This document shows positions 3,105 through 61,479 of a DNA stretch of 64,000 nucleotides, piece after piece (within the stretch, counting starts at the first letter, position 1; every line of letters starts with the position of its first letter). The position numbers were made by a program, and so were the translations under genes. This stretch comes from Eledone cirrhosa (taxonomy: Eukaryota): positions 28,768,001-28,832,000 of the forward strand of contig OZ024755.1 of the NCBI GenBank assembly GCA_964016885.1, written 5' to 3'. The notes under the pieces were generated by a model. It did no database searches, had not been told where the DNA came from, and saw nothing but the letters and a program-made list of their open reading frames with translations.

Positions 3105-3745
3105 GTAATAGTAATAAATGTGAAGACTAAAATCCGAAGAGGGCTTGATAAGGATAATATAGATGTATATAAAAAAAACTCAGGAACCAACTTCTTGTTT
3201 TTTTTCGGTTCGGTTGCAACATTTTTTTTTCGAAATATTTACTTCTGCTTCCACAGAATGATTTTTCTTAGTTCCAGAAGATCCCTGTTTTATGTGAGTT
3301 CGATTCCCGGACCGGGCAATGCGTTATGTTCTTGAGCAAGAAACTTTATTTCACGTTGCTCCTTCTACCTGGAGCTGCGACCTATAGATAGTATTAGCCA
3401 TTGGAAAGATCAATGGAAACATTGTTTCCTCGGTCCGATTTGACGAAAGTCGATCGTTCCTATAAATATTATAAGAAAATCCTGAGATCCGCAAAAAAAT
3501 CCAAATGGAAGTTCAACTAGTGTCCGTCTAAAAGTCCATTGCAGAAATCCAACACCAACAAAAAACGCACACACACATTTACCTTCAGAGCTCTGTACAC
3601 ACACACCCTTATATACACATACCTTTGCTCATAGCTTCATACTTACAAGCACACACTCACTTTAATTATATATGCACACACATATCCAATTAGATTCGTA
3701 CGGACGTACAACAAACACACACATGCGTATATGCACACGCCCATG

Positions 3746-4553
3746 GCAGTGGATTAGCAGAATCCGTAGATTATCGGATACCCTGCTTAATGGCATAGAG
3801 TTATGGCCCTTTGCGTTATGGGCTCAAATTTCGTCGGAGTTAGCTTTGCCTTTCACCCTTACGGGGTCGCTATAATAAAGTCAAAATCACGCACTGGATC
3901 GATTTAATCGACTTTGCCCCCTCAATCCATGCTTAACGGCATAGAGTTATGGTCCTTTTCGTTATGGGCTAAAATTTCGTCGGGGTTAGCTTTGCCTTTC
4001 ATCCTTACGGGGTCGCTATAATAAAGTCAAAATCACGCACTGGGTCGATTTAATCGACTTTCCCCCTCCCCTCAATTGCTGGCATTGTGCATAAATCAGA
4101 AACCATTATCACCAGGAACTAATTTTATTCCGGTGGATTGGCAGTATCGGTAGAGGGTCGGACGCCATGCTTTGACGCATAGAGTTACGGCCCTTTCCAT
4201 TCTGAGTTCAAATCCTGCCGAGGTTAACTTTGCCTTTCATCCTTACGGGGTCGATAAAATAAAGTACCAGTAATGTACTGGGTAATTGCTGGCCTTGTGC
4301 CAATAGTAGAAACAATTATTATTCCTCAAAGTTAGGGCGGTGGATTGGCAGTAACGGTAGAAAATCGGTAACCATGCTTTGCAGCATAGAGTTACGATCC
4401 TTTCCGGTCTCAGTTCAAATCTCGCTGAGGTTAACTTTGCCTTTCATCCTTACGGGGTTGATACAATAAAGCACCAGTAACGTAATGGGGTCAATTTAAT
4501 GGATTTTCCTCTTCCATAAATTACTGGACTTTTGCTTATACTAGAAATCATTA
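3746..4553 (+). mobile_element. Tandem cluster of about 4 tRNA-derived SINE copies
   Basis: A-box-like TGGCAGTATCGGT, B-box GAGTTCAAATCC, body CTTTGCCTTTCATCCTTACGGGGTCGATAAAATAAAGTACC and an ATT tail. Confidence 0.85.
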
Positions 4554-4844
4554 TTCGTCAAAGCTGCAATGCCGTCATAATTTTATCATCATTGTCATTG
4601 TTATCAGAGATTCACAGCGACTATAAATATGTCCCCATTTACGAGGACACTCAGTGCAACGCGTGACTGGCATATGGCGGGTGTGGATACCTCACCACCC
4701 ATTACACAACACCAACCCACACGCCCTTAACTCACGCGCTTCTTACTCACTAGATCTGCTATGACCTCTAAATACATTTCAATATTAGATAAAATAGTAG
4801 ATATTTACTACTACTACTACTACTACTACTAATAATAATAATAA

Positions 4845-5893
4845 TAGTAATAATGCTTTCTTTATTAACCACAAGGGTTTACATAAAGTAGACATTAAGG
4901 ACAGTACAGGACAATACAGGACGGTACAAATGGGCATTTCTGCGTGTAAAAAACAAAAACAGAGGATGTAACAAAAAATAACAATGAAAAATTCCCCAAA
5001 AGGGGGGAGACTTCCGAGGAACATTTGTGGAGAAAGCCCATTAAAAGGCCACAGTGACCCTGACCACCAGCGCAAGTGCCCTCTCCCAGTTTTCCACCTT
5101 CAATTTACAGGCACATACTCAGGCTAGGCCCATTCACTCGGGCCATTCTTGCCTCTCTCACCCATCTTTCAACAAAATGGTGGGAAGAGAACACTTCCCT
5201 CTCTACCCTGATTTTCATTTTCAAATGAAATTTGAAAAAGTTAATCAGGGCATCACCAAAGAGGTAAGTGCTCGTCTTCATCCCTTTCAAACGCGTCCTC
5301 TATACTAGCTCTTTCGCCATGGCCACCAGACAGATGAAAACTGCCTACCCTTCTCGGTTAAAGGAAGAGTGTGGGGCAATCCTCACGATGGACTCAGCTG
5401 ATAACCGGATCCATCCTACACGCGACAGCAGGTGTTCGACATAAACCCACAAGTCAACAATGCTCGGACACTGGACGAGTGCGTGCAAGGACGGTTTCGT
5501 CGCCCTGCGCGCATCTCGGACAAGCCCGGCTGACGGCACTTCCGTGCATGGAGAGTTTATCCCGAACTGGCAAAGCTCCTCGGTAGCACTGCCAGGCCAG
5601 GGATTTCTGGAAGTTGTCCATAGGCTCCGGCCCGAAAGTTCTTCCGAAGAGATTGGCTAGTTGATTTTCGTCGACGCCTAGAGTTTCCCCAAGTACGTCG
5701 TCGCTCTTCCCCTCCACTAATCCACTATAGAACGCCAAGGTGGAGTTTCCACCGTTCACATTGCCTGAATGGTCGAGGGCTGCGAGCGCCTGAAGACATT
5801 CCAGTCTCCAAGCGCTGGAATGTCTTCAAGCACTCACAGCCCTCGACCAGTCGGGGAACGTGAACGGTGGAAACTCCACCTTGGCGTTCTATA
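4845..5893 (-). mobile_element. 5'-truncated Tx1/L1-clade LINE (zf-RVT C-terminus, 3' UTR, (ATT)n tail)
   Basis: Translation AWQCYRGALPVRDKL...CPRCAQGDETVL/HALVQC contains the CCHC motif with one frameshift. AATAAA is followed by (ATT)n. Confidence 0.85.
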
Positions 5894-5904
5894 ATAATAA
5901 TAAG

Positions 5905-6186
5905 GATTTTTCGCATAGGCACAAGGCCAGCAATATTTGGAGCGAGGAAAGTCGATTAAATCGACACCAGTGCATTACTGGTACTTTATTTTATCGACCC
6001 CGTAAGGATGAAAGGCAAAGTTAACCTCGGCGGGATTTTGAACTGAGACCGTAAAGGACCGTAACTATGCTGCAAAGCATGGTGTCTGACGCTCTACCGA
6101 TGCAGCCAATCCACACCAATGTTTCTACTCTAGGCCCAGGGCCAACAATTCTAGTGGCGGGGAAAGTCGATTAAATCGACTCCAGT
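5905..6186 (-). mobile_element. tRNA-derived SINE plus a 3' fragment
   Basis: Reverse complement of the SINE consensus. Confidence 0.85.
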
Positions 6187-7215: not shown

Positions 7216-7395
7216 TTGGCAGTATCGGTAGAGGGTCGGACGCCATGCTTTCCAGCATAGTTACGTCCCTTTACGATCTGAGTTCAAATCCCGCCGAGGT
7301 TGACTTTGCCTTTCATCCTTACGGGGTCGATAAAATAAAGTACCAGTAATGCACTGGTAATTTGCTGGCCTTGTGCCTAAAGTAGAAACAATTAT
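7216..7395 (+). mobile_element. tRNA-derived SINE
   Basis: Matches the SINE consensus. Confidence 0.9.
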
Positions 7396-7597
7396 TTCTA
7401 TAACATTTACATTTCAATGTTCTTCATTATTTACTCACTTATAACATTTAACCTCAGTGTTTGCATCCGTAGTCTGCAAGTGAATTTAACATTCCTCGTA
7501 ATTTCAGTTTCTAGTATTATCTTAATGTGCTTAAAAATATAGCCATCCACACACAATACTTACAATGTGAGGCAACATTCTATCTTATACAAATAAT

Positions 7598-7785
7598 AAC
7601 TGTTTCTACTTTGGGCACAAGGCCAGCAATTACCCAGTGCATTACTGGTACTTTATTTTATCGACCCCGTATGGATGAAAGGCAAAGTCAACAACGGTGG
7701 GATTTGAACTCAGATCGTAAAGGGACGTAACTATGCTGGAAAGCATGGCGTCTGACCCTCTACCGATACTGCCAATCCACCGCCC
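7598..7785 (-). mobile_element. tRNA-derived SINE
   Basis: Matches the SINE consensus and is inverted relative to 7216-7395. Confidence 0.9.
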
Positions 7786-8804
7786 TTATACAAATAATAA
7801 CAAAATCTGATAAGTTTCCTTAAAATCACACTGACCGATTAAAAGAAAGAGGAGACATTGATTGTTAAATTTGCCGATCTTCAGAAAGTTATAATGTTCG
7901 GTCTACGATGCCTTTAAAATGGCTGGGTCTACTCTACTGTCATGCACTGGGTCGTACTTTGGCAAGTTTAACGCTGACCTGGAGCTAAACAATAATAATT
8001 ACAACATTTCATATATACACGTAAGAAAGATACATTAGAAAACGTTGATGTATATACAAGGAAATATCTTGGAACCTTCATATAAAGCACCTTTGTTGGT
8101 TCACTCTTGAATTTATGTTTACCATTCTTGTGTTGAATGTACAAATGTTTAGAATACGATAGAATAATATCTATTTTGTCTTTAGAATAATCCTCCTATT
8201 CTTCTAAGTAGTTAGATTTTTAACAACAAAGGGAACCAATGATGTTATTGTGTGAATACTTCTCTTGAATAGATGTATAGTATATAATTTGTGTTTGGTT
8301 ATGTTGGGGAAGTATATATGTCTGTGTGTCTGTTTTGTTTGAAATACCACATTGCTGGACAGAAGATAATGTTTTGACATTGGCCTTGTCGCTTTCTTAT
8401 CATTGTAATAATTAAAAGACTTGAGCACACCTTTTCTTTGAATGTCGAATTGTATGTAAGTGGACGGGAAGGGGTGGCAGACATTCACACGAGGAAGCAA
8501 AAAAAACAAAAAAATAAAAAAATACATGAGAAACAAATAAGGAGAAAATAAAACAAAAGAAAAAAAAAACGTTAACAACATTAACTTATCATCATTGGTC
8601 TCGCTATCGCTGTACTCGTCGTTGTCATCGTGATAGTAAATCAACATCATCATCAGCAGAAGCAGCAGTAGTAATATCAATATCATTATCATGAAGAAAG
8701 CTTTTATCCTTATAACAATAGTTATGGTGGATACTTACCGTCTCTATAACATAGTATTTATAACAGGAATATAGTAATGAAAGGGTTAAGTAATGATGTT
8801 GATG

Positions 8805-9170
8805 GTCTATCCCACAGCTCCGGCGGACAGAATGGAGAAGGTGTTTCCACGGAGGAAGGTAAGGGAGATGCGCTGGAAGAACCATTCCAACTCGCGAGGC
8901 TCACACCTGCGGCTGGCCAGCTCTGCGCCTATGGTGGTGAGTAGGGAGGTAGCCCTAGAGCCAAGGACACCAGTAGTATCCACTGCCGAAAGTAAGACCG
9001 CAAACCTGTCGCAGAGCGACCGGTATTTGGGCAGTTTGGCCTCCTCAGTCCGACGTGCAACAGAACCTGGGTTAGTCACTGACTGCACCAGGTTGCAGCT
9101 GGAGAAAGTGTTGCTGCAAGTGGCATCCTAGACGAGTGGTTTCCCACCGCGGAACAGAGAGATGTTAGTG
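8805..9170 (-). mobile_element. CRE-clade non-LTR retrotransposon fragment (restriction-like endonuclease)
   Basis: GKPLV*DATCSNTF...ARRTEEAKLPKY...AVDTTGVLG...FQRISLTFLRGN resembles the CRE RLE C-terminus. Confidence 0.75.
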
Positions 9171-9319
9171 AGTCAGAAACAAATGCGTTGTGACATTTGT
9201 TCTACATCGATACATCCTGGCTTAAACTGTTTTAACGTTGTCTGGTACTCCTTTATGGCTCATAAAATAGAAGTTGATCCCTCATCTGGGACGCCACCTG
9301 CTGCGACATGTTCTCCGCC

Positions 9320-9800
9320 CCCAACTTAGTCTCTTCGGCCAGAGACCCCTGGACTCGCGGCCCGCCTCACAGAAGAACGTAAAATAAAGAAATACCGGGG
9401 TGTGTCGTCCGGCCGATTCCTATTCGCATCAGTCGCCGTCGAGACCTCAGGCGTACTTGGACCCCGTACTGCCGCGCTCCTCAGTAAGATCGGAGCGTCG
9501 GCGGCCAGTCTGAGGAGGGAGCTCCGCCAGGTCGGGTGGCTGTTGCAGCGGGTGTCACTGGCCATCATCCGCGGGACTGCTTTTGCAATCTTGTCAGCGG
9601 GGCGCAACACTTCGGCCCTCTTGCCCTAGGCCCAAAACCTAAAGACCCTCCCCTTCACCCCCCCTTTCTCCTGCGACACCAGAGCTCCTACCATGCCTCT
9701 ACTTCCCGTTCTTTATCTTCTCTCTTTCTCAATTTTTTTTCTCTATATTTCCATATTCTTGCTTCCCTTTTGTTTCCCCTTTCTTTATTATTTCTATATT
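9320..9800 (+). mobile_element. CRE-clade RLE 3' fragment
   Basis: EERKIKKY...VAVETSGVLG...LLQRVSLAIIRG, followed by a pyrimidine-rich 3' UTR. Confidence 0.75.
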
Positions 9801-10214: not shown

Positions 10215-10256
10215 AAGTGTCTTAACGTTTCGGGCGATAGTCCTTCATCAGAATAT
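10215..10256 (-). ncRNA. Minimal hammerhead-like motif
   Basis: CTGATGAAGGACTATCGCCCGAAACGTTA with palindromic AACGTT. Stem I is weak. Confidence 0.5.
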
Positions 10257-14358: not shown

Positions 14359-14400
14359 GTACCACTGATGATGTCACAGATGTGTGACGAAACAACTGTG
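14359..14400 (+). ncRNA. Hammerhead core, probably truncated at the cleavage site
   Basis: CTGATGA-t-GTCACA-gatg-TGTGAC-GAAACAACTGT. Confidence 0.6.
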
Positions 14401-19253: not shown

Positions 19254-19325
<72 letters not shown>

Positions 19326-19343
19326 GTGTAACACACAAGTTAT

Positions 19344-19641
19344 TATATATTGGTAAACGGAATAGAAAATGCTGACAAATTGTTCACAGTTGAAAAATAG
19401 TATGTTGTGGGTTCGTCTTGGGGAGAAGTGTTTAGACGGGGTCCGTATTTGTTAATAAAGTAAGATTCCTTACTGACGCTCTATCTCAAAATTATTTTTG
19501 AAAAGCATTTATAAATGCGCAACCGGTAGAAACTTAAAACCACAACTGAATACTAACCAATACAATTACTAATACTCTTTTATTCCTAATTAAACTATTT
19601 TTCAACTGTGAACAATTTGTCAGCATATTCTATTCCGTTTA

Positions 19642-19650
<9 letters not shown>
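19344..19650. mobile_element. Fold-back element with about 55-bp inverted arms and a degenerate hammerhead
   Basis: 19344-19400 is the reverse complement of 19595-19650; internal CTGACGC...GCAACCGGTA. Confidence 0.6.
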
Positions 19651-19726
<76 letters not shown>

Positions 19727-20289: not shown

Positions 20290-20562
20290 CTACTGCTGGA
20301 TCCGGATGCATGAGTTCGAATCTAGCTGTCGAAACGGCCGGACCTCAGCCGTCGGGGTCCTGACTATTTTCCTATTACCCACTCTACAACCTTAAGTATT
20401 GAGTACTCTGGTGCGTTATGGTAGTAGAGTGGGTAATAGGAAAACAGTCAGGACCCCGACGGCTGAGCTCCGGCCATTTCGAAAGCTAGATTCGAACTCA
20501 TGCATTCGGATCTAGCTGTAGAAGCGGTCGGAGCTCAGCCGCCGGGGTCCTGACTATTTTCA
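20290..20562. mobile_element. Family B element with multiple inversions
   Basis: Three alternating-orientation copies of CTAGCTGTCGAAACGGCC...AGCCGTCGGGGTCC. Confidence 0.75.
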
Positions 20563-20697
20563 TATATATATACTGTGTGTATTTATACACTGTGTGTATA
20601 TATATCGTATATATATATATATATATGTATATACACTGTTTATATATATAACTGAACATATATATATATATATATACACTGTTTATATATATATAAC

Positions 20698-21393: not shown

Positions 21394-21413
21394 ATAATAA
21401 TAATAATAATAAT

Positions 21414-21882
21414 AATTGTTTCTACTATTGGCACAAGGCCAGCAATTATCCCAGTGCGTTACTGGTACTTTATTTTATCGACCCCGTAAGGATGAAAGGC
21501 AAAGTTTACCTCGGCGGATTTGAATTCAGAATGGCAAGGGCCGTAACTCTATGCGTCAAAGCATGGCGTCCGACCCTCTACCGATACTGCCAATTCACCG
21601 CCCTTTGGTACTTTATTTTATCGACCTCGTAAGGATGAAAGACAATGTTAACCTCGGCGGATTTGAACTCAGAATGGCAAGGGCCCTAACTCTATGCGTC
21701 AAAGCATGGCGTCCGACCCTCTACCGATACTGCCAATTCACCGCCCTTTGGTACTTTATTTTATCGACCTCGTAAGGATGAAAGGCAACGTTAACCTCGG
21801 CGCATTTGAACTCAGAACGCAAAGGGCCATAACTATGCTGCAAAACATGGTGTCTGACGCTCTACCGATACTGCCAAACCAC
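21414..21882 (-). mobile_element. SINE tandem trimer with a 143-bp unit
   Basis: The units at 21551 and 21694 are nearly identical, and only one 3' tail is present. Confidence 0.85.
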
Positions 21883-22294
21883 TGATAATAATAATAATGA
21901 TGAGGGAAATTACCAAAAAAATATTCGTATCTTTTTATTGAATGATACTAAGCATCTTTATATTTTTATGTAGTCACAGTTTGAAAGCTGTCAGATATGT
22001 AATAAACAGTACGGTTTATGGATATCAATATTTGACCAGTCAGTAAACGTACAATTATTTTGTAGCTTAAAAGTACAGTATATTATAGCGGGCCACCCCT
22101 CTGTTTCAAAATAATCAGAGCTGTTGAATAATATAGTATTATTCATAATTAGCCACAAAGAAATGAGCCTCCGATACTGTGCATATTGGTTAGACATTTT
22201 CTTTTAACTTATCAGTGTCTATACACTATATACTATGAATTATTGCTGTCCATATGTACTGCACCTCGTACCAAAAATGATGAGCAAGGCTCTG

Positions 22295-23670: not shown

Positions 23671-23705
<35 letters not shown>

Positions 23706-24138
23706 GATATTAAATAAATGGAAACTATATTTATAAAACCATATTTATTTCATTATATATATTTCAGGGATATCATATTAAAAATATGTTATGCCTTCTT
23801 CAGACAAAATACAATATAAACAGTCTTATAAATAGATAGATTTGACATACCTTTCAACTTCAACTTCCATTTAAAAAGTTGATTTGATTTTTTAAATGGA
23901 AGTTGAAGTTGAAAGGTATGTCAAATCTATCTATTTATAAGACTGTTTATATTGTATTTTGTCTGAAGAAGGCATAACATATTTTTAATATGATATTCCA
24001 TATAATGAAATAAATATGGTTTTATAAATATAGTTTCCATTTATTTAATATCGTAAATATACTCCAAATACTTGTTGAGTGCTTTTATATCAGTTATAAA
24101 TATTTACTCGTTGTAACCCAACAATTTAAATAAAACTT

Positions 24139-24191: not shown

Positions 24192-24493
24192 GCATATATA
24201 CATTTATATATGTGTGTGCGTTCGTTTGTGTATGTGTGAAAACTCCGAGAAGATACATGTCGTCGTCTAGACAGATGGTGCCCTATTTAACGAGAGGTAA
24301 AGCCCAATACACACAGGATATCATAAAAAGTCATACATTCTCAGAAAAATTGTACTTGAATGAAATCAGGTTTAGTAAACATTACACCGAGATAAAGATT
24401 GTGGCTGCATGACAGTTCAGTAACGTTAGAGAAAACATACTAGTGAAACAGGCTTGACAGCAGAATATATTATATATATTTATATATATATAT

Positions 24494-24942
24494 AAATCAG
24501 GAAAGAAGGTTGACATGGTTTGCTATACAAAAAAGGTTTTCAATCTCATAGCTGACAATTGTTTCTCTGAACTGGTAGGTCTAGAGATCGCTATTCGCTT
24601 ATTTTCACGTTACTCGATCGCCAATACTTTGTATATTTTGTATTGGCGATCGAGTAACGTGAAAATAAGCGAATAGCGATCTCTAGACCTACCAGTTCAG
24701 AGAAACAATTGTCAGCTATGAGATTAAAAACCTTTTTTGTATAGCAAACCATGTCAACCTTCTTTCCTGATTTATTATTACTCCAAGTGTTTACAACATA
24801 GGAATTACGGCATACCCGCAGCATCACTATGAAAACGCCTTGTTGAGTCAAACCAATCCAAGCGTTAATATCATCCACTACCTGGAATACCATAACTGGA
24901 CTATACTTAAGTGGACTGCATTTAACTATTATTTGTTACCCC

Positions 24943-25987: not shown

Positions 25988-26006
25988 ATGCCTATATATG
26001 GTCTGT

Positions 26007-26102
26007 ACCACTTGATAAGTTCTGCTAGATTCTCGCCGTTCTACTACTGGTGGCTTAGTTCGGATCTAGCTGTCGAAATGGCCGGAGATCAGCCATCGTT
26101 GT
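26007..26102 (+). ncRNA. Family B hammerhead, UUGAUAA core
   Basis: TTGATAA; GCTAGAT/ATCTAGC; GAAATGGC..GCCATC. Confidence 0.55.
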
Positions 26103-26139
26103 TCTGACTCTTTTCCTATATATATATATATATATATAT

Positions 26140-26600
26140 AAATGTAAGTATGTATGTATACGTACATACATATATGTATACAGACGTACAGTAGCATGTA
26201 TATATATACATACAGTCACACATATATATATGCACGTATCAGTTTACCGAACATTTATTATAATGCCATCTGGCAGAAAGGTATACGGTGCTGACGATAG
26301 CTAATAAGCTTGAAACTAGTACACCGTTCCTGTGTCAGTGTTGAACAAAAAGGTGACGTGGTTGCCTAAACACTGTACGGCGTAATTCAGGCTGTTTGTT
26401 TACAAACGAACAAACCGAGCATTATAATAAATGTTCGGTAAACTTATACGTGCATATATATATGTGTGCCTGTATGTATATATATACATGCTACTGTACG
26501 TCTGTATACATATATGTATGTACGTATACATACATACTTACATTTAAGTAAGTGCCGTACTAAGAGTGAGAAATGAAATTTCGTTTCATTCTATTCCATT
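26140..26600 (+). mobile_element. Fold-back element with an intact minimal hammerhead (26285-26327) in its loop
   Basis: ACGGTG-CTGACGA-tAGCT-aata-AGCTt-GAAACTAGTA-CACCGT; about 125-bp inverted arms; the tail is shared with 37050-37100. Confidence 0.88.
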
Positions 26601-26636
26601 TATATATATATATATATACATATATATAAATGTGTC

Positions 26637-26674
<38 letters not shown>

Positions 26675-26686
26675 TATAAATGTGTC

Positions 26687-26819
<133 letters not shown>

Positions 26820-26866
26820 AATAATAATAATAATCTGTTATTTTAATAAATATATATATTACCCAC

Positions 26867-26937
<71 letters not shown>

Positions 26938-31299: not shown

Positions 31300-31620
31300 A
31301 GTTAAAAAAAACAATAACGAAGAGCGCAGTACAAAGTGTTAGTATTAGGTTCACGCTTGAGAGGGGGGGGGGGCAACGTTTCGGGTTAAGCCCTTCATCA
31401 GGAGAAAAGTGGGAAGGAAAAGAGTTGCGACGGTGTGAGGGGGAGTATATCTCTTGGCAATACTCGCGCGATTTCTCGAATATTTGGTCTGCTCTGCTGA
31501 CTTGGACTCGGCAACCTTCCTGCATATCTTTACCAAACTATTAGCATAGACCCTACCGTTCAGGCTCAACAAGATGAATATTAAATGGCTACTTTGGTAT
31601 TTAGTACTCCTTTCTCCCAG
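31300..31620 (-). mobile_element. Penelope-like terminal repeat with hammerhead core (31375-31402)
   Basis: CTGATGAAGGGCTTAACCCGAAACGTT; the downstream sequence is homologous to 52830-52950. Confidence 0.65.
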
Positions 31621-32544: not shown

Positions 32545-32815
32545 ATTATTAGAAATGTTAGCTATCGCCGTATTTTGACTAAAGAAATTAAAGAAATTAT
32601 TTAGCCTGATAGTGGGGTTAAGAACCCTCGAAGAAATGGAAAAAGATGAGTATTGACGTACATGTACGTCAATACTCATCTTTTTCCCTTTCTTCGAGGG
32701 TTCCTAACCCCACTATCAGGCTAAATAATTTCTTTAATTTCTTTAGTCAAAATACGGCGATAGCTAACATTTCTAATAATTTCAAATCCACTCGCTGTTT
32801 CGAAAATATTCTTAA
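32545..32815 (+). repeat. Perfect-centre palindrome (about 118-bp arms) of a retroelement fragment in (TA)n
   Basis: Centre TACATGTA at about 32659-32666; homologous to 16100-16220. Confidence 0.85.
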
Positions 32816-36925: not shown

Positions 36926-37160
36926 AATATATATATATTCAAAAGCTTTAACCTAATAAACTACTATTTGAACTGCCTCTCTGATTTTGCTCCTGTCTAA
37001 TATTTAACTATATATAAATATATATGTATGTACGTGTACATACTTATATTTAAGTAACAGCCGTACTAAGAGTGGGAAATGAGATTTCGTTTCATTTTTC
37101 CGTTTATCGTTTTCGGTGCACCCATTATATATTTCGATGCATCCATTATATACATATATA

Positions 37161-38641: not shown

Positions 38642-38724
38642 GCTCTTACCGATCGGTTTCGCCTTGTAAAACACCAGAGACCCAATGGATTTCTAATGGA
38701 AAATCAAGGCTCATCAGAGAAGCA
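38642..38724 (-). ncRNA. Intact type-I hammerhead ribozyme
   Basis: TCT-CTGATGA-GCCTTG..CAAGGC-GAAACCGATCGGTA-AGAG; palindromic stem III ACCGATCGGT; AATAGGTAAAT downstream. Confidence 0.85.
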
Positions 38725-40200: not shown

Positions 40201-40319
40201 ATAATATATAGGAATATATAGTAAGCTCAGCGGATTTGAACTCAGAACGTAAAGGGCCATAACTCTATGCTGCAAAGGACGGTGTCTGACTCTCTACCGA
40301 TACTGCCCTACCATAATAA

Positions 40320-40685
40320 TTTTGGGGGACTTTCCTGTACATACTAACTGGACCATAAAAGCTAATAGACCAGATATCATTGTAAAAGTCCAACATAGCA
40401 AGGTCTGTTTAATGATTGATATGAGCTTCACATGTGATCACAACATCGCGGCGAAAGAATTTGACAAGCTAACAAAATATAAAGATCTGCTTATAGAAAT
40501 CGAAAAAAATGTGGCACCTCAAGGCCGTTAAAATACCAGTGATTGTAGGAACACAGTGACTGATCAAGAAAGGAACAGAACAGTATATGAGAATGATCCC
40601 TGGTTTACCCTCTCTGCAAAAGGTACTACAGAAACATGTTTTAACTGCTACTGCACACGTATTGAGAAGAGCACTATCTTTGTAA
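40320..40685 (+). mobile_element. R4/Dong-clade RLE C-terminal fragment
   Basis: DFPVHT..TIKANRPDII...MIDMS...KEFDKLTKYKDLLIEIEK/MWHLK..IPVIVG...LRRAL*. Confidence 0.8.
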
Positions 40686-41207: not shown

Positions 41208-41691
41208 TGTATACGTATATATATATATTTTTTTCTTTAAGCTGTAAATTATAATCAATTTAGTGTGTTAACCTTACCAATGTATACAGTAACAATATGT
41301 GCCCTATATGTCAGATATACACTTGGCATATAACGGAAACAATACTGAAGGAAAAAGAAAAAAAAAGAAAATTGATAATAATAATATATTTAGGACAGAA
41401 CAAAGGAAGGACACAACATAACAAAGGAGTCACTAACTAGGTCACAGTATGTGTGACGAAAGAGCTTTGTATATATATAAACAACCATCCGGTTATAGAA
41501 CCAACCAACCAATCAACCAACCGGAAATATATAAGTTGAAGTTAAAACCAACAGAAGTAAGTGTTTCTATTGAAAGCACGACGCTCCCAAAGTATAACAA
41601 TAAATATATATATATATATATATATAAATAATCTTTTTCCTTTCTACCATTTGTTTATATATATATCAAGTCGTGTGTTAAATTTCTACAT

Positions 41692-41726
<35 letters not shown>

Positions 41727-41788
41727 AATCTTTTTACTTTCTACCATTTGTTTTTATATATATCAAGTCGTGTGTTAAATTTCTACAT

Positions 41789-41878
<90 letters not shown>

Positions 41879-42002
41879 ATGTATATATATATATATTTGG
41901 AATGCGGAAAAGTAACACACGACTTGATATATATAAAAACAAATGGTAGAAAGGAAAAAGATTCTTTATATATATATATATATATTGATATATATAAAAA
42001 GA

Positions 42003-42392
42003 AATAGTAGAAAGGAAAAAGATTATTTCAGTAGAAAATGTTGAAGAGATTTTTTTCAGTGAGATATCAAAGCATTAATTTATTTACAATACCGGTTTCA
42101 GCATTAAATGTATTATCAATTGCGTATATGCAGAATATTGTTAGGTTGCATTCTCGGAATTAACATGTATGTGAAAATTAATTTTCTTCCCCTTTTTATT
42201 TTTATTTTCTTCATTATTATTATTATCACTATTTGTACAAATATGCAACTTAACAATATTCTGCATATCCACAATTGACAATGCAGTTAATGCTGAAACC
42301 GGTATTGTAAATAAATTAATATTTTGATATCTCACTGAAAAAAATCTCTTCAACATTTTCTACTGAAAGAATCCTTTTCCTTTCTACTATTT

Positions 42393-42395
<3 letters not shown>
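42003..42395. mobile_element. Fold-back element with U3-A8 hammerheads in both arms (42271-42308 +, 42085-42122 -)
   Basis: ACAA-TTGACAA-tGCA-gttaa-TGCt-GAAACCGGTA-TTGT-aAATAAA; about 140-bp arms. Confidence 0.85.
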
Positions 42396-42488
<93 letters not shown>

Positions 42489-47285: not shown

Positions 47286-47629
47286 TGTACACCAATTATT
47301 CTTTTGGGGCAAATGTATTCAATGTTCAGAGAGTGGGATTGGTCTCGTGCAAAGCCTTTCCTCACTTAAAAAGCTTCAAGCAGAGGCATAGCTTGATATA
47401 TCACATTTATTACGATGCAAATAAACACGTAAATAACAGTATGTGGCACACACACAAATAGAACATATATCTATGAATATTACATTCTTCGGGTGGTAAA
47501 AGTTCTGATTTCCTTATGGCCATTTCATGAGTCGAGGAGAACCATAACTTAAAATCGATCTAAACAATTGATTATCGATGACCAACTATCGATTTTGGTT
47601 ATGCCGTGGGAGACGCGAATCAATCATCA

Positions 47630-48155
47630 AAGGCAAAGCTCACTTCCGTGGGATTTAAACACAGAACATAAAGGGCAGTAACTATACGCCGAAAAGTGTG
47701 TTGACCAGCGCTCCATTGATACTACCAATTCCCCGGCCTTCAGATGATAATGGTTTCTGGTTCAACAATTTTGGGTGAAGTTAAAGTTTAATTAAATTTA
47801 CTCCGGTGTATTTCGGGTACTTTATTTTATCGACCCCGTAAGGATGAAAGGCAAAGCTAACCTCGGCGGGATTTGACCACAGAAGGTAAAGGGTTGTAAC
47901 TCTACGCCGAAAAACATGTTGTCCGACACTCCCCGACACGGGCACTCCTCTGCCCTTCAAATAATAATTGTTTCTACTTTAGGCACAAGGCCAGCAATTA
48001 CCCAGTGCATTACTGGTACTTTATTTTATCGACCCCGTAAGGATGAAAGGCAAAGCTAACCTCGGCGAGATTTGATCACAGAACGTAAAGGGTTGTAACT
48101 CTGCGCCGAAAAACATGTCCGACACTCTCCGACACTGGCATTCCCCTGCCCTTCA
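47630..48155 (-). mobile_element. Three tandem SINE copies
   Basis: Match the SINE consensus. Confidence 0.8.
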
Positions 48156-48234
48156 AATAATAATGTTATATAAATTTCGGGATAATGCAACGAATTTTGC
48201 CGTAGAAATAAATTCGTTTGAAGTATCTCAGCCT

Positions 48235-48700
48235 CTTTGTTGTTCTCCGGCTCCAACTTAGTCACGTCGGCCACACATCTCGGTATTGCGACCCGCCATG
48301 CACAGGAAAGAAAGATAAACAAATGCCGGGGATTGTCCAGCCGCTTCCTCTTCAGACCGGACGCCTTTGAGACCTCAGCCGTTCTTGAACCTCGTACTGG
48401 CGAGCCCCTCTGCAAGATCGGAAAATCGGCGGCCCGTCTGAAGAAGGGGTTCCGTGAGGTGGGGTGGATCTTGCAGCAGATGTCGCTGACCATTGTCCGC
48501 GGGAATGCTTTTGTGGTCTTGTCCGTGTGGTGCAGCCCTATTACCGCCACGCCCTACACCCAGAGCCCAATCCCCCTCACCCTCCCCATACTTCTGTGAC
48601 ACTAGATCCTTGCCGTTCCCTCACTTTCCCGTTTTTTTAATTTTTCATATTTTCTTATTTTACATTCCATTCCTTCTTCTTGATCTAAATTTTCGTTTCT
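48235..48700 (+). mobile_element. CRE-clade RLE 3' fragment
   Basis: ATRHAQERKINKC...AFETSAVL...ILQQMSLTIVRGNA. Confidence 0.75.
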
Positions 48701-49095
48701 GAAGTTAACTAACAAGAAATGATGAAACACAAATGTTATCTCGACGTTATTGCACCACATATTATAATGGAGATTTAACTTAATACTTCTAGACAGTGTA
48801 CCTCGTCACCACTAAACACTGACCTTAACGTAGCACCTTACCACGATTTCGCAACAGTATCTATTTTGATAATATCACTACTTATACTACTAAAACCACT
48901 ACAAAATGTTATAATATTGGTTATGACCCTTTCTCAATTTTCCATTAATCTAATGCTATATAGTTACGTATATTATAAATGCTATGTCAAATCCGAAATT
49001 CAGTGGTGCTGCAAATTAAATTAAAGACTGCTTCAATTATGTGGGAGGAACATGCTGCATCGTTTGCAAGTTTATTATTGCTCTCTGCACGGGGT

Positions 49096-49480
49096 GGTGG
49101 ATTGGCAGTATCGGTAGAGGGTCGGACGTCATGCTTTCCAGCATAGTTACGTCCCTTTACGATCTGAGTTCAAATCCCGCCGAGGTTGACTTTGCCTTTC
49201 ATCCGTACGGGGTCGATAAAATAAAGTACCAGTAATGCACTGGGTAAAAGCTGGCCTTGTGCCAAAAGTAGAAACAATTATTTCTCTCTGCACGGTGGAT
49301 TGGCAGTATCGGTAGAGGGTCGGACGCCATGCTTTGTAGCACAGTTACGTCCCTTTACGAACTGAGTTCAAATCCCGCCGAGGTTAACTTTGCCTTTTAT
49401 CCTTACGGGGTCGATAAAATAAAGTACCAGTAATGCACTGGATAATTGCTGGCCTTGTGCCTAAAGTAGAAACAATTATT
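49096..49480 (+). mobile_element. Two tandem full-length SINEs
   Basis: Match the SINE consensus. Confidence 0.9.
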
Positions 49481-49639
49481 TCTGATAAAGCTATTCTCTT
49501 TCCTAATGCATACATAGCTACAATATTTGTAAAGCGTATTAGGTTTCCATGTAAAACGGGAGACTTAATCAATTTTAACACCTTAATCCCTTGTTATTCG
49601 CGCACTATTTGAACATAGATTACTTTTCATTTCATTAAC

Positions 49640-52384: not shown

Positions 52385-52946
52385 CACACACACGTACGTT
52401 CCACCACATATTTACACATTCAGCCTCCGGAATCCTCTCCCCCCACCCCTCTATCCACACACGCACGCACACTCCGACCTACACCCCACCCCACACACAC
52501 CTCTTCCTGAACATGCAACCCCGTTCTTCCCCCAACTCTTACTTTCACATACAAACACACACACACACACAGGTACACCTACACACACACACACACCACC
52601 TTCAGCCCTCCCCGCTCGACACCCCGCCTCCCTCTCCCCACTCCACCCGCCACCACCCCTACACGCCGCACACCCTTCCACCACCTGTTTTACTTCATGT
52701 GTATTTTTATTTTTATCATGCTTTTATATTTAATTTCATTTGTACCGTTTCCTCTCACCCCCTTTTTTCTATATGTCTCTCCACCACTCCCCTACACACC
52801 CTTGGAACTCTCTTCCCACACACTTTTCACCTGAAGAAGGGCTTATGCCCGAAACGTCGTTCCCCACCACCACCCTACTCTCAAGAGCGTGAAACTAATA
52901 AACCTTTGTTCGTACTGCCTCTCTGTTTTGTTCCCGTTCAATTTTT

Positions 52947-57420: not shown

Positions 57421-57856
57421 AAGTACACACCACTTATAATTTTTAAAATGAAGCGCTTATAATTTGTTCACAAAATCACTAACCCTAACCCTAACACAAA
57501 CTTTTTTTGTAGATGATCTGGGTGTGTATGCCAAAATGTATGTTATGATGAACCTCGTTATGACATTCTAGAGATATCTAGCATGATTGTAAAGCGAAAG
57601 AAACATCGATATTAATGGCTAAACTGTTTCCAGAGTATCATATATGTAACATATCCTTATGGACCCATGAAACTATATACTATCCTATGATGGAATATGT
57701 ATCAATGAAGAAGTAACCAGGTAATAAACGTTACTGCGTACACTAAATCAGGGCCCACAATATGTTTGGTGTACCTGTACCTATACCAAGATTTTGAGTA
57801 CTTGACTAGATGTTAAAACCTAAAAGAAATATATACAGTATCGTAAATTTACACAA

Positions 57857-58053
57857 TAATTGTTTCTACTTTTGGTACAAGGCCAGCAATTACCCAGTAC
57901 ATTACTGGTACTTTATTTACATTACTGGTACTTTATTTTATCGACCCTGTAAGGATGAAAGGCAAAGTGAACCTCGGCGGGATTTGGACTCAGACCGTAA
58001 AGACACGTAACTATGCTGGAAAGCATGGCGTCCGACTCTCTACCGGTACTGCC
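57857..58053 (-). mobile_element. tRNA-derived SINE
   Basis: Matches the SINE consensus, with a 20-bp internal duplication. Confidence 0.85.
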
Positions 58054-58479
58054 AAGGGTACGACCGCAAACCTGTCGGAGAGCGAGCGGTACAGGTAGGA
58101 AGACATTACAGACAATTTCAGTCGGTTTCACTAAATATTACCGTAACATATCTAAACGAAACGAAACGAAACAAAAATTTACACAATAATGACATAAACT
58201 GCATCTTCCTAAAATGTAACGAGGGACACTGATGCTAAATACCAATCAAAACAACTTTAATGTCGCATCATAACCTTACGACAACATTTATTGACAACCA
58301 ATCGTAGACGCCCTTCCATAGAACACGTATATCTAAATGAGGCAGATAATTTTATGAGAGGAAAAGACCCTATAGAAAACATAGATAGGGATGTAAATAA
58401 AACACTTGCGTTAGGATGAAACGATGGTTAGTTATTAGATATTTGAAAGATTAAACACTCTTTGATTATTATTTAAATT

Positions 58480-58668
58480 GCGGTGAATTTGCAGTATCGG
58501 TAGAGGGTTGGACGCCATGCTTTCTAGCATAGTTACGTCCCTTTACGGTCTGAGCTCAAATCCCGTCGAGGTTCACTTTGCCTTTCATCCTTACGGGGTC
58601 GATAAAATAAAGTACCCGTAATGTACTGGGTAATTGCTGGCCTTGTCCCAAAAGTAGAAACAATTATT
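58480..58668 (+). mobile_element. tRNA-derived SINE
   Basis: Matches the SINE consensus. Confidence 0.9.
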
Positions 58669-59214
58669 TACATTGTACAATCATACAGATATTTATGAAG
58701 GCATATAAATAATTCAGGGACATACATTAAAATATTACACAGCTAAAGCCATCGTGAAGTAAAACATTTGTAATGTTTGTGTTAACATATTCAAATTTGA
58801 GATACGTATTGTTCATATCTGCCGACTTGTGATCGCTGTGAAAACGCACGCCCAAATGTTTTTACCAACACGTTGCCATCTGCTTAACCAGTGCACAGAT
58901 TCGCAATGGTATTCTGAACATCTAAAGCAAACCAAATTTTGGGGTGTGCCAATTTTAAATAATTCGACCATGACGCTGAAATTTATTTTTAAATTTCCAT
59001 CATCTGTGTATTATTTGTCCGTTTTTTTTCTATGTAACTCTAACACTTTGGATAGTCATATAAATTTAGAGGAGTTAATATTTGTTTTTATCCCACACTA
59101 TCGAAGTATGTATTTGAAACTGCGATCTTTTTATTCGGCAAATATCTCGTTTCGTTTAGATATCTTACGGTAATATTTAGTGAGATCGACGGAAATAGTC
59201 TGTAAGGTCTTCCT

Positions 59215-59455
59215 ACAAGTACCGGTCGCTCTCCGACAGGTTTGCGGTCGTACCCTTGGCAGTGGAGACTTCTGGTGTCATTGGCCCTAGGGATACCTCC
59301 CTACTCACCACCATCGGAGCTGAGCTGGCCAGCTACGGGTGCGATCCTCGTGAGTTGGAATGGCTCTTCCAGCGTCTCTCCTTTATCATCCTCCGGGGAT
59401 GTGGGGCGGCCAGCACGTGGGACCCCATTTGCTCACCATGCAAGAGAGATGGCGA
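59215..59455 (+). mobile_element. CRE-clade RLE 3' fragment
   Basis: KYRSLSDRFAVVPLAVETSGVIG...ELEWLFQRLSFIILRG. Confidence 0.75.
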
Positions 59456-59799
59456 GACACTTTATTTCACGTTGCTCCTTCTACCTGGAGTTGCGACGGA
59501 TAAATAATATTAAGAATTGGAAATACCAACGGAAAGATTGTTTCTTTGGTTCGATTTGACCAAGGTCTATCGACGAAATGTTTTTAGTGTCAATAAAAGC
59601 TCCTCCACGCCAGACTGGTCATGCCGCAGATCAAAGATAAGCATTGTGATGTCCAATACGCTATACTGATTGTATTTTAAAATCAATATTCCCAAAACTT
59701 TGATTGAGAGCATTGACCCCGCAGGTGATGTATTTTGTAGAGCATATTATTATGAAGTTTCGTAACTACTATCTATTACTCAGATTGTCAATAAAATAG

Positions 59800-61085: not shown

Positions 61086-61479
<394 letters not shown>

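Follow-up and report, generated by a model that had tools for sequence, protein, structure and literature searches.

A minimal hammerhead ribozyme motif in a 5′-truncated fold-back insertion, very probably of an abundant Penelope-like element family, in Eledone cirrhosa

We describe a locus in the genome assembly of Eledone cirrhosa (GCA_964016885.1, contig OZ024755.1) that is very probably a 5′-truncated insertion of a very abundant Penelope-like element (PLE) family, with a type I hammerhead ribozyme motif lying in the loop between two inverted arms. The locus was analysed within a window of 64,000 nucleotides (nt; positions 28,768,001 to 28,832,000 of the contig, forward strand), to which all coordinates below refer and which is AT-rich, rich in microsatellites, probably cephalopod-like in its repeats and without long real open reading frames (ORFs). 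As no reverse transcriptase or GIY-YIG gene could be tied to the family, its assignment to the PLEs rests on the anatomy of the insertion, by which it appears well supported. Truncation of the 5′ end with an inverted, truncated copy adjacent to it was found, and (TA)n on both sides and a one-sided extension of 54 nt were observed, with reads covering the element to about 26490. In the accessible text of Craig et al. (2021, PMC8557442), insertions of endonuclease-positive PLEs are characterised by the same 5′ truncation and inverted truncated neighbour, with a tail at one end and a bias towards (TA)n; the tail is 30–40 nt in those elements, as against an extension of 54 nt here.

The hammerhead is minimal, belongs to type I and occupies 26285–26327 (+), where the core order CUGANGA ... 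GAAA ... UH of the type I arrangement is present and the letters can be read directly. On this strand, stem I is formed by ACGGTG (26285–26290) and CACCGT (26322–26327), the core by CTGACGA (26291–26297) and GAAA (26312–26315), and stem II by 26299–26302 and 26307–26310 within AGCT-AATA-AGCT (26299–26310), with 4 bp and a 4-nt loop. The stem III segment, CTAGTA (26316–26321), overlaps a perfect palindrome, ACTAGT (26315–26320), which is self-complementary at 6/6 positions; the segment 15.1–16.1 is too short for a helix III within a monomer, and the cut is predicted after 26321, at the end of the GUA site. The preliminary description had named CTGACGA, the 4-bp stem II, GAAA, the ACTAGT palindrome and the GUA site, all of which we read directly within 26285–26327. 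Its word 'textbook', however, overlooked T26298 and T26311 (+): owing to these, the 4-bp stem II is separated from the core by a U·U mismatch, at 10.1/11.1, instead of the consensus (though non-obligatory) G10.1-C11.1 pair. Past two internal loops, stem I is prolonged outward by the helices 26279–26281/26329–26331 and 26270–26275/26333–26338, giving a hammerhead with extended stem I at 26270–26338 (+). In the predicted fold of 26267–26345, helices I and II form with pair probabilities of 0.64–0.96 and 0.9–1.0, respectively, and the stability of the 79-nt hammerhead fold is unexceptional (z −1.58).

That 26285–26327 represents a genuine hammerhead motif is confirmed, its core class being far above chance. 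The window holds seven core matches, whereas 100 shuffled sequences averaged 0.32 and none of them reached seven; ten motifs satisfied the type I descriptor, against a mean of 0.21 and a maximum of 2 in 200 shuffles; a motif with six Watson-Crick pairs in stem I and four in stem II occurred in 0/200 shuffles. Rfam returned no match at gathering score anywhere in the window, all ten type I motifs included, and none of the 17 matches obtained at E up to 10 for 26200–26500 belonged to a hammerhead family.

The arms, at 26139–26266 and 26419–26546, are 128 nt each, complementary at 126/128 positions (98%) and separated by a spacer of 152 nt; the near-identical fold-back reported earlier is therefore real, with its length of 125 bp corrected to 128 nt. 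A (TA)n run at 26118–26138, which would be the insertion target, adjoins the outer end of the left arm. The left arm itself (26139–26266, −) is best read as an inverted, 5′-truncated second copy of the 3′ part of the element (equivalent to 26419–26546), lacking both hammerhead and tail. The main 5′-truncated copy of the high-copy family spans 26267–26600 (+), as judged from reads up to about 26490 and by extrapolation for 26500–26600, and the right arm (26419–26546, +) is its 3′ part according to both the arm comparison and the reads. Beyond it lies the one-sided extension (26547–26600, +), which we read as a PLE tail following PMC8557442, in the part of that source available, and then a (TA)-rich run (26601–26815), presumably the other half of the target. 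A second, partial copy favours the tail reading, albeit as one comparison: 26510–26590 recurs within the window at 37020–37096 (88% over 81 nt), and the 37020 copy has the same few final letters ahead of a TA run as 26547–26600. On the other hand, since reads cover the element only to about 26490, the outer arm could be target DNA and not part of the element. The 152-nt loop is present as a single copy within the 64-kb window, and no ORF of at least 90 aa overlaps 26139–26600.

The two arms differ at two places, each arm having gained one substitution, so that at both places one arm has the common letter of the family and the other a rare one; the rare letters are at 26445 in the right arm (0.8–2.9% of depth) and at the equivalent of 26469 in the left arm. 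With just 2/128 differences the insertion appears to be fairly young, roughly 2 million years old with a very wide range (about 0.3–8) if the octopus calibration, a distance of 0.09 per 25 million years in the consulted part of PMC13282606, applies. The left flank (26057–26119) is a piece of another repeat, found also at 20313–20375, 20436–20498 and 20505–20566, and the usual continuation of this repeat reappears near 26860 (26858–26870); 26120–26857 may thus consist of nested insertions into one older element.

Reads or contigs of 4 of the 23 listed public runs were aligned to 26267–26600, with 26500–26600 left out. Runs X1 and X2, which count as one sample, yielded 11,005 and 10,518 aligned contigs, respectively, and run X21 yielded 53,022 of 12.47 million reads, all three totals including microsatellite-like matches at 26447–26494, where depth was set aside as inflated. 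Depth, which over 26267–26490 does not equal copy number, was high across the whole of this interval in X1, X2 and X21, and hence the loop and the right arm belong to one abundant repeat. A fourth run, X4, the one small-share run used, contributed one low-depth contig across 26267–26486 and was given no weight as independent support. Ahead of 26268, the loose ends converge on an upstream sequence different from that of the arm (19 contigs of X1, 16 of X2 and 9,792 reads of X21), from which it follows that family copies continue upstream of 26268, that the present copy is truncated at its 5′ end and that the left arm duplicates, in reverse orientation, this copy's own 3′ part. An opposite-strand joint, 26326/26422, detected in X21 (75 reads with 6 starts and a short side of 60 letters), resembles another such head-to-head junction; opposite-strand joints were absent from the contig runs X1 and X2 among the joints listed. 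The junction 26266/26267 of the present copy was spanned by no read or contig among the 15 of 77 joints listed. Seven listed opposite-strand joints to 26394/26398, from a RAD run, were left uncounted as probable library chimeras at a restriction site. No RNA data set was listed for 25990–26600, which is evidence neither for nor against expression. Contigs from metagenomes, viruses and prokaryote genomes, scanned for exact patterns, yielded 0 matches in each of the three collections.

Variants were considered for the best 40 of 74 rows, and among these the positions within 26285–26327 were 26288, 26295 (N7), 26305 (loop II) and 26324 only, with no variant in the invariant core or at T26298 and T26311. 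The letter of this copy at 26324, C, accounts for 0.3–1.2% of depth, with T or G making up the remainder (~99%). Frequencies of T26288 and G26324 co-vary over four strata (42/37%, 47/39%, 5/5.5% and 53/49%), as a swap of G·U for U·G would produce; this suggests, from frequencies and not from haplotypes, that in the family the pair is most likely G·U or U·G. The perfect 6-bp stem I of the preliminary description thus holds for this copy, where all six pairs form, but not for the family, which mostly has T or G at 26324; the perfection of the stem most likely reflects a substitution private to this copy. Variation at N7, in loop II and in the wobble pair would be the expected trace of selection acting on the folded ribozyme of the parent elements.

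A minimal type I hammerhead with a palindromic stem III implies cleavage as a dimer, and in this the earlier reading agrees with the palindromic helix III and dimer model published for PLE hammerheads (PMC4209133; review, PMC6765202; both as far as accessible). In silico, a tandem dimer of 26280–26335 has an active fold of −23.4 kcal/mol, which improves by 4.2 kcal/mol on a pair of monomers forming stems I and II alone (−19.2 kcal/mol) and is not the minimum-energy fold (−27.7 kcal/mol); the probability of the helix III between units is ~0.19. Cleavage of the dimer is therefore feasible, although not favoured, and we rate at slightly better than even the chance that a dimer, or an RNA with extended helix III, would cut in vitro. 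According to the available portions of the respective reports, PLE hammerheads cut weakly even as dimers (PMC4209133), and the PAc hammerhead of Anolis cuts only with protein (PMC11167929). In the parent element, the two hammerheads of a tandem transcript would pair via ACUAGU as helix III, and cleavage after GUA would probably be slow or require the aid of a protein.

By a mechanical definition, the window contains 24 fold-back regions, which account for 10.6% of its bases. Six of the ten type I motifs lie inside fold-backs, in five separate regions (nominal binomial p 2e-4, with motifs that are non-independent), as compared with only one of the six other core matches. An end of the fold-back is situated within 15 nt of a (TA)n run in 14 of the 24 regions, the background rate being 4.3% of positions; for 11 of these 14 the opposite end lies 25–104 nt from the next run. 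Fold-backs of unrelated sequence are common, their spacers ranging from <15 to 327 nt; near-perfect ones are located at 24492–24775, 32545–32780, 23697–24061, 41608–42427 and elsewhere, often bounded by (TA)n on one side and continued by a short extension on the other. In another fold-back, 19265–19726, the spacer near 19468 (−) resembles what we take to be the C-terminal end of a GIY-YIG endonuclease, and Pfam gave no match for this GIY-YIG-like remnant at about 19468. Decayed short frames at 5345–5825, 8790–9629, 40253–40531, 48056–48599 and 59199–59559 are presumably similar to endonuclease or zinc-binding domains of non-LTR retrotransposons, and a Pfam search with seven short frames of the window produced sub-threshold matches only (zf-RVT, E 0.00036; L_protein_N, E 0.062). 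Many copies of a SINE-like repeat of ~150–350 nt are dispersed through the window (~3745–4555, 5899–6114, 7216–7786, 21408–21884, 47626–49483 and 57855–58674).

Eight of the type I motifs have a long helix II (first base of CTGANGA at 2494+, 23487+, 30875+, 35492+, 61578−, 45460−, 41064− and 23803−), and in all eight GAAA is preceded by T, stem III is palindromic in full or for the most part, and the letter at the cut site is A. In six of the eight, pair 4 of helix II is a C·C mismatch amid compensatory changes of its neighbours, and U11.1, opposite A, G or U, occurs in nine of the ten type I motifs. The motif at 38717–38647 (−) has the canonical G10.1-C11.1 and a helix II of 6 bp capped by a long loop, together with a palindrome of 10 nt, which might close helix III as a monomer; with these features at hand, 26285–26327 is not clearly the best ribozyme of the window. 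Core matches with a short helix II were also recorded (10227–10251−, 14365–14393+, 31378–31401−, 52831–52855+ and 61345–61367+), three of which share a common AGG(G/A)C...CCCGAAACGT form that lacks helix III and seem to belong to a further PLE family.

We propose that the insertion arose from a parent element in which ~280 nt separate the minimal type I hammerhead from the 3′ end. A GIY-YIG endonuclease would have cut an AT-rich target, as published PLE work suggests; reverse transcription would have been primed at both target ends, from two start sites differing by the tail (PMC11167929, in its accessible part), and the two truncated, inward-running cDNAs would then have been joined head to head, this joining step being our own suggestion. 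The mechanism is taken by analogy from PAc, a Poseidon element of Anolis (Frangieh et al. 2024), for which the available text describes an AT-rich target, a PLE protein that cuts and extends both target strands and a tail that derives from two start sites; the PAc hammerhead was dispensable for insertion in vitro. Because the inverted copy would be truncated 3′ of the hammerhead, the latter came to sit in the loop, and the arms, which had been thought to 'hold' the ribozyme, appear purposeless, as the usual inverted 5′-truncated copy of a PLE insertion. The present copy would be a decaying passenger.

Several other explanations were weighed against a truncated PLE insertion. The locus might be the monomer of a non-LTR retrozyme, i.e. 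a short tandem repeat that encodes no protein, carries a type I hammerhead and is propagated via circular RNA by PLE enzymes. The two readings are close and differ only in whether the parent encodes a protein; retrozymes have, moreover, been argued to be PLE derivatives (bioRxiv 10.64898/2026.07.22.740005, as far as its text was available), and both the very high copy number of the family and the absence of an ORF over the locus would fit. We nevertheless consider it improbable, given that the copy is single in the window and shows no head-to-tail tandem units, that the 3′ end of this copy is not matched by any of the upstream loose ends listed and that no joint of unit length going back was present among the 15 of 77 joints listed; in the accessible descriptions, retrozyme hammerheads are canonical, with loop-loop contacts. 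A fold-back or MITE DNA transposon with a captured hammerhead, or an element presenting its ribozyme on a 128-bp duplex, would account for the near-perfect arms and for a fold of the full 26139–26546 that keeps stem I (probabilities 0.6–0.9) and stem II (0.9–1.0), but fixed terminal inverted repeats were not found, other copies carrying non-arm sequence upstream of 26268; furthermore, the element continues beyond the right arm, and the window abounds in fold-backs of unrelated sequence with the variable spacers given above, which leaves such a transposon extremely unlikely.

To the same very small degree we allow for a chimera of assembly or library, in which the hammerhead repeat alone would be real. 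The number of fold-backs within one window would suit such an artefact, as would an exact junction that no read spans among the joints listed, whereas the split of common and rare letters between the arms at the two places where they differ argues for independent ageing rather than for copying during library preparation, and the ends are ordered relative to (TA)n. The preliminary description had seen in the locus the best candidate for a still-active copy. All core nucleotides are indeed intact, stems I and II are well formed, and the 2/128 differences between the arms indicate a fairly young insertion; against a role as source of the family, however, stand the truncation of the copy 18 nt upstream of stem I, its lack of an ORF and the absence of a second hammerhead of the same family within 64 kb; its letters at 26324 and 26445 are, moreover, rare in the family, where a source copy would have spread its own. 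The suggestion of a still-active source copy is thus very unlikely to be correct, the truncation, the missing partner and the private substitutions all speaking against it. In more general terms, activity of the locus as an element is unlikely because there is no ORF and no second hammerhead in cis and because each arm has gained a substitution.

The closest published counterparts of the motif are the PLE hammerheads of Drosophila willistoni and Hydra magnipapillata (Fig. S3) and Dwi_HHR2 (Fig. S5) of Cervera and De la Pena (2014, PMC4209133). In the portions available, these are likewise of type I, with CUGANGA-U, helix II, GAAA, a palindromic helix III and A at the cut, and in the D. willistoni and Hydra rows helix II is flanked on either side by one additional U, with the same U·U at its base; columns of these supplementary rows are partly lost in the PDF text and GAAA is displaced, so the positions of U·U and GAAA are as we read them. 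The present motif differs in sequence and host, in its 4-bp helix II with a 4-nt loop, in its 6-nt palindrome and in the absence of a linked ORF, and it lacks the G10.1-C11.1 that is the general consensus in the same source. According to Perreault et al. (2011, PMC3088659), a U10.1-U11.1 at the start of stem II occurs in nature and is tolerated better than any other mispair; 26285–26327 resembles the U·U hammerheads of that passage, which deals with no PLE family from the present genome. The sequence of the hammerhead was not found in the accessible supplement of PMC8557442; titles and abstracts found in the literature on octopus Penelope hammerheads do not describe this family, and the word 'hammerhead' is absent from the main text of an octopus repeat annotation (PMC13282606). 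Lunse et al. 2016/2017 (RNA Biol), with their supplements, may already describe such variants.

It is conceivable, though rather doubtful, that the PLE hammerheads of this genome form a distinct structural subtype in which U11.1 is constant rather than G10.1-C11.1. The suggestion draws on U11.1 in nine of the ten motifs, on the C·C kept in six of the eight long-stem motifs and on the G·U/U·G wobble of the family in helix I. Should it be true, U11.1, the C·C and the wobble could mark a tertiary contact or a binding site for an element protein, and protein-assisted cleavage of the dimer could be tested on a very large natural alignment.

PLE hammerheads with a palindromic helix III and PLE insertions with inverted repeats have both already been published. 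As a single locus the present case adds little; its modest value is that of a clear and relatively young representative of a family that numbers thousands of copies. This family may be used to map the starts of PLE reverse transcription and the joining of two truncated cDNAs, and to test for selection on the non-canonical features of the hammerhead helices.
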